Shown here piece by piece: positions 10 through 14,147 of a DNA stretch of 25,783 nucleotides. Under the pieces are notes generated by a model that had not been told where the DNA came from, did not search any database, and saw only the letters and a list, made by a program, of their open reading frames with translations. Position 1 is the first letter of the stretch. Each line of letters begins with the position of its first letter. The stretch is from Candidatus Heimdallarchaeota archaeon (GTDB lineage Archaea > Asgardarchaeota > Heimdallarchaeia > Heimdallarchaeales > Heimdallarchaeaceae), in assembly GCA_021399395.1 (NCBI GenBank), contig JAAFKJ010000130.1, forward strand, positions 1 to 25,783. Direction: 5' to 3'. The translations under genes and the position numbers were made by a program.

Positions 10-990
10 ATGATTAGAGCAATTATTACAGGAGTGATTATTGGATTAATAGGCGGTTTGATTGGAGTTTTCGTTCTATTGAAAGGGATGGTATTTCTGG
101 GAGAAGCTATAGCTCATTCAGCATTTGCAGGAGCGGCTCTCGCCTTACTTCTTGGGATCGAACCCATAATTACTATACTGCTATTTGGAGTTATATCTGC
201 CGTAGGAGTTGGAGCTGTAAGTGAGAAAAAAATCATGAAAGATGAAGTTATCATAGGAATAGTTTTTACGAGTTTCATGGCATTAGCAATTTTATTTATT
301 GGATTAAAAGGAACTAATAACACATCTGTTGATTCGATATTATTTGGTAATATAGTCGCAGTTACTGAAGCGTCATTTTATACACTCATTTTCTTAGCCT
401 TAGTTGTAGTCCTCATCATTTACGCATTCAAAAAGGAACTCTATCTTATAACTTTTAATTCAGAGATGGCCAAAGTAGCTGGTATTCCAGTAAGATTTCT
501 CAATTACCTGTTTCTGGTGCTTGTAGCAGTTACCATCAACATTTCATTAGAAGCTATAGGTGCAATACTTGTGTTTGCGATGATAATAACTCCAGCTGCG
601 GCAGCATATCAATGGACTTTCAAGCTTAATAAGATGATAATACTAGCGACAATTTTCGGTATGTTCTCGTCCATTTTCGGGATATTTTTCTCCTTTATAC
701 TTGACATACCATCTGGAAGTGCAATTGTTGGGCTCGCAACATTGATTTTTATTGTATCATTCATTGCTTCTCCTAAAAGAAGAAAATCTGGTTCAGGCCA
801 TGTAGTTGAAGATTGTGAATTCTGCTCTAAAACCATTGATGGCAGAAAATACTGTATAGAAGAAAACTGTATTGCCAAAGAAATCCCCCACAAACATGAT
901 GAAAAGGGATTAATAATCTACAAAACTGCACTTGCTCATACTAAGAAACCATCAAAACATAAACATGATTCTGGAGGTAAAGAAGAATGA
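10..990 (+). CDS. znuB: Mn/Zn ABC transporter permease (ZnuB/MntB family) with a Cys/His-rich C-terminal tail; the frame is open to the window edge, so the true start may be upstream
   Basis: Multi-TM protein with family motifs GEAIAHSAFAG, ILFGNI and GAILVFAMIITPAAAA; ATGA overlap with the ABC ATPase. Confidence 0.9.
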   Translation: MIRAIITGVIIGLIGGLIGVFVLLKGMVFLGEAIAHSAFAGAALALLLGIEPIITILLFGVISAVGVGAVSEKKIMKDEVIIGIVFTSFMALAILFIGLKGTNNTSVDSILFGNIVAVTEASFYTLIFLALVVVLIIYAFKKELYLITFNSEMAKVAGIPVRFLNYLFLVLVAVTINISLEAIGAILVFAMIITPAAAAYQWTFKLNKMIILATIFGMFSSIFGIFFSFILDIPSGSAIVGLATLIFIVSFIASPKRRKSGSGHVVEDCEFCSKTIDGRKYCIEENCIAKEIPHKHDEKGLIIYKTALAHTKKPSKHKHDSGGKEE

Positions 991-6457: not shown

Positions 6458-6533
6458 TGGTAGCTCCAGGATGATTCGAACATCCGCCACAGAGAATAAA
6501 TCTCTGTATCCTTGGCCACTAGACTATGAAGCT
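6458..6533 (-). tRNA. tRNA-Gln-like gene with UUA (ochre) anticodon and atypical loop; suppressor-like or non-translational tRNA
   Basis: 76 nt cloverleaf AGCTTCA TA GTCT AGTGGCCAA GGAT A CAGAG ATTTATT CTCTG TGGC GGATG TTCGAAT CATCC TGGAGCT ACCA; all four stems pair and CCA is encoded. Confidence 0.85.
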
Positions 6534-9751: not shown

Positions 9752-9825
9752 TGGTAGACCCGAGGCGATTTGAACGCCTGTCTCAGGATCCAGAGTCCCG
9801 TATCCTTCCGCTAGACTACGGGTCT
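9752..9825 (-). tRNA. tRNA-Gln(CUG)
   Basis: AGACCCG TA GTCT AGCGGAA GGAT A CGGGA CT-CTG-GA TCCTG AGAC AGGCG TTCAAAT CGCCT CGGGTCT ACCA; A1-U72. Confidence 0.97.
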
Positions 9826-12076: not shown

Positions 12077-12152
12077 TGGTAGTCCCAGGGAGATTTGAAC
12101 TCCCGGTACCGGATTCAAAGTCCGGAGTGTTTCCAGGCTACACCATGGGACT
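12077..12152 (-). tRNA. tRNA-Gln(UUG)
   Basis: AGTCCCA TG GTGT AGCCTGGAA ACAC T CCGGA CT-TTG-AA TCCGG TACC GGGAG TTCAAAT CTCCC TGGGACT ACCA. Confidence 0.97.
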
Positions 12153-12221: not shown

Positions 12222-14147
12222 TTATTTCTTTCCCCAAGAATCTCTCAATGTAATGATTCTGTTGAATACAAGATTTTCTTTTGAAGAATCCTCAATATCT
12301 ATCACATAGTATCCATTTCTTTCAAATTGGGATCTTGACCCAGACTCCTTTTCTTTGAGAAATGGTTCTACATAAGATTCTATTATGTTAATAGAGTCAG
12401 GATTGAGATAATCCTTGAATTCTTTTCCTTCTTCTGTGTCCATAGGATTTTCTTTTGTATATAATCTATCATATTGCCTAACTTCAACTTTTAGAGCATT
12501 ATCTGCAGACAACCAGTGAATAGTTCCTTGTACTTTTCTTCCATCAGGAGATTCTCCTCCTTTTGTTTCAGAATCATAGGTACAATGGATTTCTTTTATT
12601 TCCCCAGTTATTTCATCCTTAATGGTATCTTCATATTTGATGAAATAAGCGTATTTCAATCTAACTTCTTTACCTGGAGAAAGTCTATAGTAGTCGTCAG
12701 GAGGGTCTTCCATGAAATCTTCTTTCTCTATGAATAGATTTCTAGTAAATTTCACCTCTCTTGTTCCCATACTTTTATCTGAAGGATGATTTGGTACAGA
12801 GAAGACCTCTTCCTTATCCTCGGGATAATTTGTTATTACTAGCTTCAGAGGGTTAAGAACACTCATTACTCTAGGGCATCTTTTGTCCAAATCCTCACGG
12901 ATATAATGCTCAAGGATAGACATATCGATTAACTTCTCTCTTTTAGTGAAGTTTATTGCAAGGGAGAAGTTTCGGATAGCCTCAGGAGTGTATCCTCTTC
13001 GCCTCATACCTGCTATTGTAAGCATTCTGGGATCATCCCAACCATTGACATATCCTCCTTCAACTAGCATTCTCATATTTCTTTTACTAAGAACCATGTA
13101 GGATAGATTCATTTTAGCAAATTCGGTTTGCTGAGAATGATGTATGGGATTTCCTTCTTCGTCCTCTAACTGATCAATATACCAATCATAAAGGGGTCTA
13201 TGAACCTCAAATTCTAAAGTACAATTCGAATGAGTAATTCCTTCAATAGAATCTTCGAGCCCGTGAGCCCAATCATACATAGGATAAATACACCATTTAT
13301 CTCCTGTCCTGTGATGGCTTGCATGAAGGATTCTATAAATAATGGGGTCTCTCATGAGCATATTAGGATGAGACATGTCAATTTTGGCTCGGAGAACTTT
13401 TTCTCCGTTTTTAAACTCACCATTTTTCATCCTCTCAAAGAGGTCAAGATTCTCTTCAATGGGCCTGTTTCTATAAGGGCTCTCTTGTCCATGTTCAGTA
13501 ATAGTACCTCTCATCTCTCGTATTTCTTCAACGCTGGAATCATCTACGTAAGCCAATCCTTTTCTAACTAACTGGACAGCATATTCATAGAGTTGATCGA
13601 AGTAATCTGATGCAAAGAGCAATCTATCTTCATAGTCTACTCCTAACCAAAGTACATCTTTGATAATGGATTCAACAAATTCTTCCTCCTCTGTTAGAGG
13701 ATTTGTATCATCAAACCTAAGATTGAATTTTCCCCTGTATTCAAAAGCAAAGTTATAGTTTCGGTTTATAGAATAAGCATGGCCAATATGTAACCAGCCA
13801 TTTGGTTCCGGAGGGAATCGAGTATGGACTTTTCCGTCAAATCGACCTGTTCGATTGTGTTCCTCAATAATCTCTCTTATGAAATCAGCTTCTTCCTGAA
13901 CCTCTTTTTCCTTCTTTTGAAGAAGTTCTGGAAATTGTTTTTGTGCGAGTTGTTGTATTTCTTCAGCTGTTAATGAATTGATATAATCAACCTTATTTTC
14001 AATAATCTCTTTGATGCGTTTTGCATCCTTTCTTAATTCGGAATCAGCCTTAAAGACAAGACCCATGACAGGACCTACTTCTGCTTTCCCGTGTTCTAAA
14101 GCATTTTCAATAGCATGTTTTTCGCACATTTTTTCTACTGAATTCAT
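12222..14147 (-). CDS. glnS: Glutaminyl-tRNA synthetase: bacterial-type core with archaeal GluRS-like N-terminal domain
   Basis: TRFPPEPNGxLHIGH, LRFDDTNP, WCIYPMYD, ITHSxCTLEF, VLSKR, GWDDPRM, GKEVRL, GTIHW, QFERNGY and LRDSW match GlnRS end to end. Confidence 0.93.
   Translation of the reverse strand: MNSVEKMCEKHAIENALEHGKAEVGPVMGLVFKADSELRKDAKRIKEIIENKVDYINSLTAEEIQQLAQKQFPELLQKKEKEVQEEADFIREIIEEHNRTGRFDGKVHTRFPPEPNGWLHIGHAYSINRNYNFAFEYRGKFNLRFDDTNPLTEEEEFVESIIKDVLWLGVDYEDRLLFASDYFDQLYEYAVQLVRKGLAYVDDSSVEEIREMRGTITEHGQESPYRNRPIEENLDLFERMKNGEFKNGEKVLRAKIDMSHPNMLMRDPIIYRILHASHHRTGDKWCIYPMYDWAHGLEDSIEGITHSNCTLEFEVHRPLYDWYIDQLEDEEGNPIHHSQQTEFAKMNLSYMVLSKRNMRMLVEGGYVNGWDDPRMLTIAGMRRRGYTPEAIRNFSLAINFTKREKLIDMSILEHYIREDLDKRCPRVMSVLNPLKLVITNYPEDKEEVFSVPNHPSDKSMGTREVKFTRNLFIEKEDFMEDPPDDYYRLSPGKEVRLKYAYFIKYEDTIKDEITGEIKEIHCTYDSETKGGESPDGRKVQGTIHWLSADNALKVEVRQYDRLYTKENPMDTEEGKEFKDYLNPDSINIIESYVEPFLKEKESGSRSQFERNGYYVIDIEDSSKENLVFNRIITLRDSWGKK

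Follow-up and report, generated by a model that had tools for sequence, protein, structure and literature searches.

The window analysed here, a whole contig of 25,783 nt, carries an uninterrupted open reading frame with an ATG start that encodes a predicted chimeric glutaminyl-tRNA synthetase (GlnRS), together with two tRNA-Gln genes and a tRNA-Gln-like paralogue (Table 1). Both tRNA-Gln genes lay where the original prediction had placed them, the UUG gene 69 bp downstream of GlnRS on the same strand and the CUG gene about 2.3 kb further on, and they were the only tRNA-Gln genes that ARAGORN found in the 2.8-Mb assembly. A Pfam search of ten neighbouring ORFs returned SDRs, GH18, a beta-helix protein, DUF389 and a transglutaminase, and no integrase or transposase that would indicate a mobile element. 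No cox genes were present near GlnRS in this window, unlike the cox-gene context described for Hodarchaeales and Kariarchaeaceae in a 2024 preprint.

Table 1. Features of the chimeric GlnRS gene and of the tRNA genes in the window.
Feature	Position	Strand	Properties
Chimeric glutaminyl-tRNA synthetase, whole gene	12222..14147	-	641 aa + TAA stop
N-terminal four-helix domain (predicted), residues 1-86	13890..14147	-	Homologous to archaeal GluRS N-terminus
Acidic linker and start of bacterial-type GlnRS body (DFIREIIEE...), residues 87-105	13833..13889	-	pLDDT 58-66; net charge -3 over residues 76-105; E. coli alignment begins at residue 86
Class I catalytic domain, residues 106-421	12885..13832	-	Pfam PF00749, E 6.5e-99; LHIGHA, VLSKR, YPMYD, SNCTLEF; aligned to E. 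coli and P. aeruginosa GlnRS
Two beta-barrel anticodon-binding domains, residues 424-617	12297..12878	-	PF03950 and PF20974; contain PRVM and, by alignment, the counterpart of the E. coli G36-recognition loop
tRNA-Gln(UUG)	12077..12152	-	69 nt downstream of GlnRS stop; A1-U72, A73, A37, encoded CCA; arrangement recurs in relatives
tRNA-Gln(CUG)	9752..9825	-	2.25 kb beyond UUG gene; A1-U72, A73, G37, encoded CCA
tRNA-Gln-like paralogue	6458..6533	-	Anticodon loop AUUUAUU, read as UUA; non-canonical; in the same tRNA-Gln/GlnRS neighbourhood in relatives

The protein had been predicted to follow bacterial GlnRS from about residue 88 to its end, and profile and pairwise searches agreed with this. 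It scored 674.4 bits against the NCBIfam equivalog model TIGR00440 (glnS; cut-off 425.8), with residues 107–640 matching model positions 1–524, and residues 8–551 of E. coli GlnRS aligned to residues 86–640 (E = 2.3e-189). Pfam assigned tRNA-synt_1c to residues 106–421 of the whole protein, the corresponding _C domain to 424–525 and the _C2 domain to 542–617. Against PDB entries, the whole protein matched E. coli and P. aeruginosa GlnRS with E values of 1e-189 to 1e-193, human GlnRS with 5e-123 and the archaeal GluRS 3AII with 1e-63, and archaeal GluRS models scored it under their cut-offs (389.8 vs 401.75 bits for TIGR00463; 362.7 vs 516 for NF003169). Compared to bacterial GlnRS (E. coli 1GTR/1O0B, P. 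aeruginosa 5BNZ), residues 86–640 aligned end to end with conservation of HIGH, VxSKR, YPMYD, CTLEF, PRxM and the G36 loop, and the core shared 55–65% identity with GlnRS from a wide range of bacterial phyla; unlike these enzymes, the protein has an archaeal host and begins with an additional domain derived from Archaea.

The glutamine-pocket and anticodon-side motifs that had been named in the original prediction were all located by alignment to E. coli GlnRS. The class I motifs LHIGHA and VLSKR corresponded to E. coli LHIGHA and VMSKR, the glutamine-pocket segment CIYPMYD was identical to that of E. coli, HSNCTLEF aligned to HSLCTLEF, and the anticodon-side motifs CPRVMSV and QFERNGY were present. 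The Tyr of YPMYD and the Cys of CTLEF are glutamine-pocket residues in E. coli GlnRS. The acceptor-unpairing region RGTITEHGQESPYRNR aligned without gaps to E. coli GlnRS RGTLTQPGKNSPYRDR, as did the G36-recognition loop region DFMEDPPDDYYRLSPGKEVRL to a stretch of 21 E. coli residues. Nureki et al. (2010) describe the acceptor-unpairing hairpin and the G36-recognition loop as tRNA-Gln-specific modules missing from ND-GluRS. The body keeps this hairpin and the elements that read U35 and G36, which set a GlnRS apart from ND-GluRS. Relative to archaeal ND-GluRS (M. thermautotrophicus 3AII), which represents the source family of residues 1–86 and has in common with this protein the class Ib fold and beta-barrel anticodon domains, the protein differs in falling under the GluRS cut-offs and in having the G36 and unpairing loops that are missing there according to that study.

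Residues 1–85 had been predicted to resemble the N-terminal domain of archaeal GluRS, and this was borne out. Residues 1–105 alone matched only archaeal GluRS models (NF003169, E = 1.2e-15, residues 2–86 to model positions 3–88; TIGR00463, E = 2.2e-9), and in a PDB search the domain matched M. thermautotrophicus GluRS 3AII (residues 3–82 to 3–83, E = 1.7e-10), with the next matches at E > 0.5. It also aligned without gaps to GluRS N-domains of Heimdallarchaeia, with a common one-residue deletion and a KYPE motif, and N15, G20, A22 and P73 were invariant across 13 GlnRS and 15 GluRS N-domains. In an N-domain tree (76 columns) it grouped with the GluRS N-domains of families f1 and f4 and of type B of f5 (SH-aLRT 84), and sequences from Nitrososphaerota, Bathyarchaeia and Fervidicoccus fell outside that Heimdall group. 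These results give moderate support for the N-domain being closest to the GluRS N-domains of Heimdallarchaeia itself. A sequence-word search with residues 1–90 returned 12 proteins, all close GlnRS relatives. The AF2 model confidently predicted a four-helix fold, with pLDDT > 90 for residues 11–70 and 58–66 for the linker.

The same domain had been proposed to be tRNA-binding, which was not upheld. Its net charge was between -3 and 0 in 12 of 13 sequences (residues 76–105 of this protein carry -3), and this acidic-to-neutral charge is unlike that of typical appended RNA-binding domains; the tRNA-binding role is therefore unproven. No YqeY/GatB-tail match was obtained for it, Foldseek against the PDB gave a best E of 4 (the PDB may hold no well-ordered comparator), and the N-terminal domain is disordered in 3AII, the only solved archaeal GluRS as stated by Nureki et al. 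(2010). The same study labels the GluRS N-terminus a YqeY / GatB-tail domain. This identity was rejected for the present N-domain, as hhalign against 14 GlnRS YqeY tails gave a probability of 1.4% (with a single low-quality row in the tail alignment) and a protein atlas search returned GluRS fragments only (best scores 0.80 and 0.76); GatB_Yqey gave no match in the N-domain and was not among the 25 Pfam families listed for 28 members. A very distant kinship with these tails may nevertheless exist.

It had further been suggested that the fusion parallels the appended domains of eukaryotic and Deinococcus GlnRS, and this held for the presence of an additional domain before or after a GlnRS body, but not for the domains themselves. 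The GlnRS of Deinococcus radiodurans with its C-terminal YqeY domain (PDB 2HZ7; NF011291) is likewise a bacterial-type GlnRS to which a helical domain taken from the older indirect pathway has been added. The YqeY tail of the Deinococcus enzyme raises its affinity for tRNA. In contrast to that enzyme, the domain appended here is N-terminal, comprises ~86 aa, is a homologue of the GluRS N-terminus and has no profile similarity to YqeY tails. The protein matched NF011291 at positions 6–558 of 769 (809 bits), leaving the C-terminal part unmatched, and Pfam found no C-terminal GatB_Yqey (PF02637) in it, a domain that the bacterial members P0124 and P0129 do have. Public records name these archaeal proteins 'GlnRS/YqeY fusion', and since neither a GatB_Yqey domain nor similarity to one was detected, this name describes an absent domain. 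Eukaryotic GlnRS also has an N-terminal extension before the catalytic body, but its extension is unrelated (PF04558 and PF04557 had no match in Pfam searches of the protein and the N-domain) and its core lies in a separate clade.

Survey of 400 Asgard genomes identified GlnRS in 42, all within three families of one class (Heimdallarchaeia), and the nearest named homologues came from MAGs of Heimdallarchaeaceae or Heimdallarchaeota. The N-domain was present in all 21 loci of families f1 and f7, closed genomes included, and in none of the 12 loci of family f5; tblastn detected it in 5/5 long-form controls and 0/13 short-form loci. Identity of the N-domain among long-form loci was 40–84%. The fusion is thus not unique to this genome and is already present in public records, and two families of Heimdallarchaeia have it as their fixed architecture. 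The assembly itself is fragmented (201 contigs, 82% complete, 2.6% contamination), which would be compatible with bacterial contamination of the bin or with a contig that joins the 5' end of an archaeal gltX to a bacterial glnS. However, the same fusion occurs in the single-contig genomes G054 and G055, the GC content of the gene (36%) is near that of the genome (34%), the flanking tRNA-Gln genes are of the archaeal type (A1-U72), and the N-domain/core junction (~13833–13889) was bridged with 0 differences by contigs from four runs, which belong to two studies, in a check that left out a possible source run. Because the fusion is found in 21 loci and its junction is bridged in four runs, an assembly artefact is ruled out as its source; the chance that such an explanation holds is negligible, and it is already refuted.

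Phylogenetic analysis of the core pointed to a bacterial origin, in agreement with the claim that GlnRS was acquired by horizontal gene transfer. In an IQ-TREE analysis of 85 rows, a eukaryote-type clade was separated from the bacterial type (SH-aLRT 99; PF04558 was present in 5/5 eukaryote-type rows tested), and the long-form clade (100) fell inside a 26-row bacterial group (99). In a second tree of 39 rows, the long form was recovered with 100/99, the short form with 100/100 and the short form plus Syntrophales with 90/86, and the Heimdall cores stood apart from the eukaryotic GlnRS clade with 100/100. Residues ~86–641 therefore nest among the bacterial GlnRS sequences, apart from both eukaryotic GlnRS and archaeal GluRS, which shows that they came by horizontal transfer, and the separate clade and unrelated extension indicate that the Heimdall enzyme is neither ancestor nor sister of eukaryotic GlnRS. 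The third family, f5 (one named record, 'Promethearchaeota archaeon'), has a short-form GlnRS without the N-domain and with a different bacterial neighbourhood, grouping with Syntrophales. Both forms are of the bacterial type and are found beside tRNA-Gln genes and alongside GatD, but the short-form core was 57.5–60.9% identical to the long-form core studied here, with bacterial sequences at least as close, and the short form has its own G73/A37 tRNA-Gln genes. The trees favour two separate transfers for the long and short forms, and a single origin was not rejected (AU test of a single Heimdall clade, p 0.073 with 39 rows).

The search for gltX, gatD and gatE found that this genome also encodes a separate GluRS (428.3 bits against the archaeal GluRS model, on another contig), GatD and a fragment of GatE at a contig edge. 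GatD was present in 41, and a separate GluRS in 39, of the 42 GlnRS-bearing genomes, and the two closed genomes G054 and G055 contain both. As GluRS and GatD are kept in nearly all GlnRS genomes, the direct and indirect routes to Gln-tRNA coexist side by side as judged from gene content. The proposal that direct glutaminylation had been acquired thus stands as far as a bacterial GlnRS is present, but the indirect route was not replaced, and retention of GatDE means that GlnRS may be redundant or conditional.

A match to the tRNA-Gln model was found within the flanks of 28/33 GlnRS loci, and the identity of positions 37 and 73 varied with this linkage. A review gives G73 for bacterial tRNA-Gln, compared to A1-U72 and A73 in the neighbouring tRNA-Gln genes here. 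In f5, 16/16 GlnRS-linked tRNAs were G73/A37 and 6/6 unlinked tRNA-Gln genes of the same genomes were A73/G37. The intron-less UUG genes of long-form loci were A73/A37 (7/7), and f7 genomes had a linked UUG gene with A37 and an unlinked one with G37. Among families without GlnRS, all tRNA-Gln genes of f4 (6/6) and f6 (3/3) were A73/G37, and f3 had G73 in 5/12 genes and A37 in 2/12. That GlnRS-linked tRNAs have A37 and GlnRS-free relatives mostly G37 suggests that tRNA and enzyme may be tuned to each other, with the pairing of the short enzyme with a G73 tRNA and of the long enzyme with an A73 tRNA resting on two lineages; several species of this genus have a G73 CUG isoacceptor despite the long enzyme. 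The tRNA-Gln-like paralogue at 6458..6533 is probably not a working decoder. Its ARAGORN reading as tRNA(UUA) raised the possibility of TAA recoding or an ochre suppressor, which was rejected as a general code change, since 13 of 24 ORFs checked in the window stop at TAA and five relatives have different anticodon loops in the syntenic gene.

Overall, we consider it likely from these sequence comparisons that the gene encodes a working GlnRS for direct synthesis of Gln-tRNA(Gln), with a bacterial core obtained by horizontal transfer, a grafted GluRS N-domain and a coexisting indirect route. What the N-domain does is more speculative. Joined ahead of the core through a flexible acidic linker, in a gene placed directly upstream of tRNA-Gln(UUG), it would adapt the foreign GlnRS to archaeal A73-type tRNA-Gln through added affinity or positioning, a role that we propose tentatively and rate at somewhat short of even. 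The short-enzyme family would have found an alternative solution, a dedicated G73/A37 tRNA-Gln pair kept beside the gene. By extension, the 'orthogonality barrier' to which the absence of GlnRS from Archaea has been ascribed may have been breached twice in two ways by Heimdallarchaeia, by a short form with its private tRNA pair (native A73/G37 tRNAs being left to GluRS/GatDE) and by a long form that uses a GluRS N-domain for A73 tRNA-Gln, although we regard this broader scheme as doubtful. If true, two parallel glutamine-decoding systems would operate in one cell in the short-form lineage, and the N-domain would be a specific device fitting a bacterial synthetase to archaeal tRNA or to the archaeal transamidosome.

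The N-domain could instead be a protein–protein module with which GlnRS docks onto a partner of the archaeal GluRS N-terminus (the GatDE transamidosome, another synthetase complex or an elongation factor), resulting in channelled Gln-tRNA or in competition with GluRS for tRNA-Gln. Its charge would fit such a role, as would the retention of GluRS and GatD and the archaeal GluRS-GatDE-tRNA complex described in a review; the residues invariant in common with GluRS N-domains suggest the same ligand as GluRS. However, the domain has no known partner and is disordered in 3AII, and we consider this role unlikely. Still less probable is that the domain is a passenger, left over and tolerated after recombination had brought a bacterial core into a duplicated gltX gene, or immediately after its 5' end, and had so supplied the core with a native promoter and start. 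The fusion point is indeed a natural GluRS domain boundary, and the short form of another family appears to do without the domain, but its intactness in 21/21 long-form loci of two families, its 40–84% identity among them with residues kept invariant jointly with GluRS, and the confidently predicted fold point to purifying selection. A further reading is a division of labour, in which GlnRS serves only the co-travelling tRNA-Gln genes (A37; G73 in one family) and native A73/G37 tRNAs fall to ND-GluRS with GatDE; two glutamine systems would then run in parallel and be orthogonal in part, and the native UUG gene would have been lost in this genus. The two tRNA-Gln sets in the same f5 genomes, the linked A37 and unlinked G37 UUG genes of f7 and, in the window, the A37 UUG gene beside GlnRS with the G37 CUG gene 2.3 kb off are consistent with this, but one gene per isoacceptor was found in this genome, which requires one or both of the pathways to handle the two tRNAs. 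We regard this division as possible though not probable, and it is compatible with, rather than exclusive of, the explanation that we prefer, a working GlnRS beside the indirect route.

According to reviews published until 2022, GlnRS is encoded by no archaeon, and the reason given is the incompatibility of archaeal tRNA-Gln and GlnRS. A GlnRS in a Heimdall-group archaeon contradicts this textbook view; earlier print contains one passing mention. Three families of the class of Archaea nearest to eukaryotes have GlnRS as a fixed gene, and in them the enzyme's architecture and the identity positions of the tRNA show apparent mutual adaptation, with the old GluRS/GatDE route still in place. As to how eukaryotic GlnRS arose, the enzymes of the Heimdall group are bacterial imports rather than precursors, and natural orthogonal GlnRS/tRNA pairs could serve genetic-code engineering. 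These families provide a natural test system for how a foreign synthetase is domesticated, for the role of the archaeal GluRS N-domain and for whether the two pathways to Gln-tRNA, direct and indirect, are able to operate together.

By every sequence criterion applied, the window protein is a glutaminyl-tRNA synthetase (GlnRS). It scored 674 bits against the NCBIfam glnS equivalog TIGR00440 (cut-off 426) and fell under the cut-offs of both archaeal GluRS equivalogs. Its top matches among solved structures, over residues 83/86–640, were the bacterial GlnRS of P. aeruginosa (E 7e-193) and E. coli (E 2e-189), with far weaker matches to human GlnRS (5e-123) and archaeal GluRS 3AII (1e-63). A residue-level alignment showed that the HIGH, KMSKS-type VLSKR, YPMYD, SNCTLEF and PRVM motifs were kept, and that two GlnRS-specific loops, which the available text of Nureki et al. 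(PMC2978374) places in GlnRS and describes as missing from non-discriminating GluRS, were conserved without gaps. Residues 1–105 alone had no Pfam match and matched the N-terminus of archaeal GluRS in NF003169 (E 1.2e-15, residues 2–86 to model positions 3–88), in TIGR00463 (2e-9) and in residues 3–83 of M. thermautotrophicus GluRS 3AII (E 1.7e-10). The original prediction of a bacterial-type GlnRS body joined to a GluRS-like N-terminus was thus confirmed in both parts.

The public gene call (P0003, 614 aa) is 27 residues shorter at the N-terminus, beginning with the internal Met of ...GPVMGLV... and so splitting the N-domain in half. Residues 1–27 were conserved in all relatives, so the ATG at 14147 is supported as the start.

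Coordinates of the GlnRS gene, its domains and the tRNA-Gln and tRNA-Gln-like genes discussed in the text
Feature	Position	Strand	Details
Chimeric GlnRS ORF	12222-14147	(-)	ATG to TAA, open, 641 residues
Class I Glu/Gln catalytic domain	residues 106-421		Pfam
Two beta-barrel anticodon-binding domains	residues 424-525 and 542-617		Pfam
tRNA-Gln(UUG)	69 nt past GlnRS stop	same as GlnRS	ARAGORN
tRNA-Gln-like gene, anticodon UUA ('tRNA-Stop')	6458-6533	(-)	76 nt, ARAGORN
Odd tRNA-Gln-like gene, locus L192 (G052:C187:2081-2501)	149-222		
Odd tRNA-Gln-like gene, locus L007	1168-1242		
Odd tRNA-Gln-like gene, locus L010	1132-1206		
Odd tRNA-Gln-like gene, locus L013	1165-1239		

An assembly artefact was ruled out. 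The assembly (2.8 Mb, 201 contigs, 34% GC, 82% complete) is close in composition to the GlnRS gene (36% GC), and contigs of four runs from two studies crossed both the N-domain/core junction and the GlnRS–tRNA spacer with zero differences, which speaks against a chimeric contig. The 641-aa architecture also recurred in dozens of Heimdallarchaeaceae/Heimdallarchaeota MAG protein clusters at 59–90% identity.

GlnRS was found in 42 of 400 genomes of the phylum (41 of them above cut-off), all from three Heimdallarchaeia families: the window's own family f1 (21/31, own genome counted), f7 (9/12) and f5 (12/22), with none in the remaining 335 genomes. Assembly gaps account for part of the absences; the tRNA-Gln pair of G006, for instance, sits at the extreme end of a contig, and the gene is expected beyond it. 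The fusion proposed from one contig extended across two families, as the N-domain was present in all 21 f1 and f7 loci examined (long form). All 12 f5 loci lacked it (short form), starting ~20–30 residues ahead of the DFIR motif, and tblastn with the N-domain detected 5/5 long-form controls and 0/13 short-form loci.

Core trees were built with FastTree (284 rows) and IQ-TREE (LG+C20+F+G4, quick search, 85 rows, rooted on Heimdall GluRS). Both separated a eukaryote-type clade (PF04558 in 5/5 rows tested) from a bacterial-type clade (SH-aLRT 99), and the window's core fell, as predicted, in the latter and not with archaeal GluRS. In the 85-row tree, long-form sequences formed a single clade (100) inside a 26-row group (99) that includes Ignavibacteriota, Bacteroidota and Fibrobacterota, and short-form sequences formed a separate clade (100) adjoining Syntrophales/Thermodesulfobacteriota (86). 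A careful 39-row search recovered the long form (100/99), the short form (100/100) and the short form with Syntrophales (90/86), with weak values (81/90) for the group holding the long form. The window core was 57.5–60.9% identical to short forms, compared with 59–63% to bacterial sequences. Constraining all Heimdall sequences to one clade cost 35.4 log-likelihood units (p-AU 0.073, for a group defined after the tree was seen); two transfers are therefore favoured, and this value does not reject a single origin. On these trees, GlnRS is a bacterial import under one or two transfers, and neither sister nor ancestor of eukaryotic GlnRS. No single donor phylum is indicated, since the window core was 55–65% identical to GlnRS of many phyla. 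Within the long-form clade f7 nested among f1 lineages (98/93, 39-row tree), and the genome survey found no GlnRS in f2–f4 of the window's own order, which together hint at loss or transfer inside the class.

The N-domain likely came from a Heimdallarchaeial GluRS. It could be aligned gap-free with GluRS N-domains from across the class (16–41% identity; 31% to that of its own genome), sharing a one-residue deletion (H-GKA) with f1 GluRS and one f5 GluRS subgroup, and a KYPE motif with these and f4. In a tree of 77 N-domains, GlnRS N-domains clustered with this f5 subgroup (83–89), with f4 and f1 GluRS domains as sister (84); Nitrososphaerota, Bathyarchaeia, Fervidicoccus, f6, f7 and other f5 sequences stood apart. 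The native source that had been proposed is thus likely and short of proof, because the tree had few columns (76), a quick search and no starred support. The f5 GluRS loci (L038–L053) were of two quite different types, LRLAPYPSGPLHIGN... and TRLPPEPSGYLHIGH...; among GluRS, it is the latter type whose N-domain is most closely related to that of GlnRS.

An AlphaFold2 model built from 28 aligned N-domains (mean pLDDT 85; >90 across residues 11–70) comprised four helices (3–19, 24–34, 36–57 and 61–71) followed by a low-confidence helical linker. Nureki et al. label the N-terminus of archaeal GluRS, disordered in 3AII, as YqeY-type. A YqeY relationship was not reproduced: compared by hhalign with the C-terminal YqeY tails of 14 bacterial GlnRS, the domain reached a probability of 1.4%, GatB_Yqey was not among the 25 Pfam families listed for the 28 N-domains, and the best Foldseek hit in the PDB had E 4. 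The public name 'GlnRS/YqeY domain fusion' is a mislabel, the YqeY part of the annotation model behind it (NF011291) being unmatched. Since the folded part was also acidic to neutral (net charge −3 to 0 in 12/13 GlnRS N-domains), the description of this region as a tRNA-binding domain was not borne out.

GlnRS is an addition to, not a substitute for, the indirect pathway. A search for gltX, gatD and gatE in the window's genome found archaeal GluRS (428 bits, contig C75), GatD (481 bits) and, at the edge of a contig, GatE in its C-terminal half. GatD was present in 78/83 genomes of the class and 41/42 with GlnRS (the single miss is 86% complete), and GluRS was encoded apart from the GlnRS locus in 39/42 (misses 70–86% complete); the two single-contig f1 genomes had GlnRS, GluRS and GatD.

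The genome's own GluRS (L001, G000:C75:37567-41017; also L060, L067) reads ...PPEPSKHPHIGQ... at the expected HIGH position, is highly diverged in the 85-row tree (branch of 2.54 changes per column) and barely exceeds the TIGR00463 cut-off (428 vs 402); its constraint was possibly relaxed or changed once GlnRS arrived. At least two GatD matches occurred in 11/12 f7 genomes (G080–G091), mostly as a pair of full-length copies located on separate contigs; a single full-length GatD was the rule in most of the remaining families, with a shorter second match under cut-off in f3 and f4.

ARAGORN called only two tRNA-Gln genes in the window's assembly, both inside the window. A covariance model of 21 tRNA-Gln genes from GlnRS loci and syntenic positions, partly the same sequences as those scored, matched within ~±1.5 kb of 28/33 Heimdall GlnRS loci. 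E. coli GlnRS uses A37 and G73 as identity elements. In f5, GlnRS-linked, intron-less genes carried G73/A37 (16/16), and unlinked genes of the same genomes, mostly with introns, carried A73/G37 (6/6, five genomes). Linked intron-less UUG genes of long-form lineages carried A73/A37 (7/7), as did all intron-bearing and other UUG genes checked, and four f7 genomes had a second, unlinked UUG gene with G37. Families f4 (6/6) and f6 (3/3), which have no GlnRS, carried A73/G37. Counter-examples to a simple pattern were f3, also without GlnRS (G73 in 5/12 genes, A37 in 2/12), and the CUG isoacceptor of the window's genus (A73/G37 in the window, G73/G37 in G004, G006, G011 and G024). As related genomes are non-independent samples, these patterns are leads, not statistics.

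The gene at 6458-6533 combined the A1-U72/A73 acceptor and D arm of tRNA-Gln(CUG) with an abnormal loop, AUUUAUU (A32, U37). Five further species of the genus have a syntenic copy within a few kb of GlnRS; these copies, 76–90% identical, all differed in the anticodon loop (CUG in G018 and G012, GUU in G017, GAU in G021, an 8-nt loop in G001), giving a family with a conserved body and a hypervariable loop. A code change was rejected, since TAA is used more often than any other stop in the window. UUA-containing loops recurred among further odd genes between or beside tRNA-Gln genes at GlnRS loci: L192, from another genus of the family, shared the AUUUAUU loop and carried an A1·A72 mismatch, and L007, L010 and L013 (three species of the window's genus) had 6-nt (or 8-nt) loops. 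A second 'tRNA-Stop(tta)' with a 30-nt intron (G000 contig C70:18401-18509) is probably an ordinary tRNA with a mis-placed intron. Two f5 genomes that yielded no GlnRS had tRNA-Gln-like genes with introns (L196, G061:C135; L198, G068:C175) that read ...TTCTAT... at the anticodon and were called 'tRNA-Pyl(cta)', which may reflect wrong placement of the intron or a genuine CUA anticodon.

Taken together, the identification by sequence, the conserved fused GluRS-type N-domain, the tRNA-Gln linkage and the coexisting GluRS and GatDE suggest that the window GlnRS would charge the adjacent tRNA-Gln directly with glutamine, and we consider the enzyme identity and history proposed here quite probable. 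According to the available text of PMC9499178, the discriminator base is A73 in archaea and G73 in bacteria. The N-domain may help a bacterial enzyme to act on A73 tRNA-Gln of the archaeal kind, or to cooperate with archaeal partners, and the short-form lineage would have met the same problem from the tRNA side. Adaptation to archaeal tRNA-Gln is our tentative preference for the role of the N-domain; binding of a protein partner is a rather unlikely alternative role.

The available text of 2021–2022 reviews (PMC8007984, PMC9499178) holds all known archaea to be without GlnRS, and that of PMC8762117 has it missing in 'almost all archaea', citing Di Giulio 2020. A full-text search on archaeal GlnRS turned up a single relevant mention: the available text of a preprint from 2024 (10.1101/2024.07.04.601786) places GlnRS among cox-adjacent genes in Hodarchaeales and Kariarchaeaceae; no full text found described the chimeric N-domain, the two enzyme forms or the linked tRNA sets, and supplements might hold more. 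The finding is real and well supported: an enzyme of the same general kind as known GlnRS with an appended domain sits in a domain of life held to be without GlnRS.
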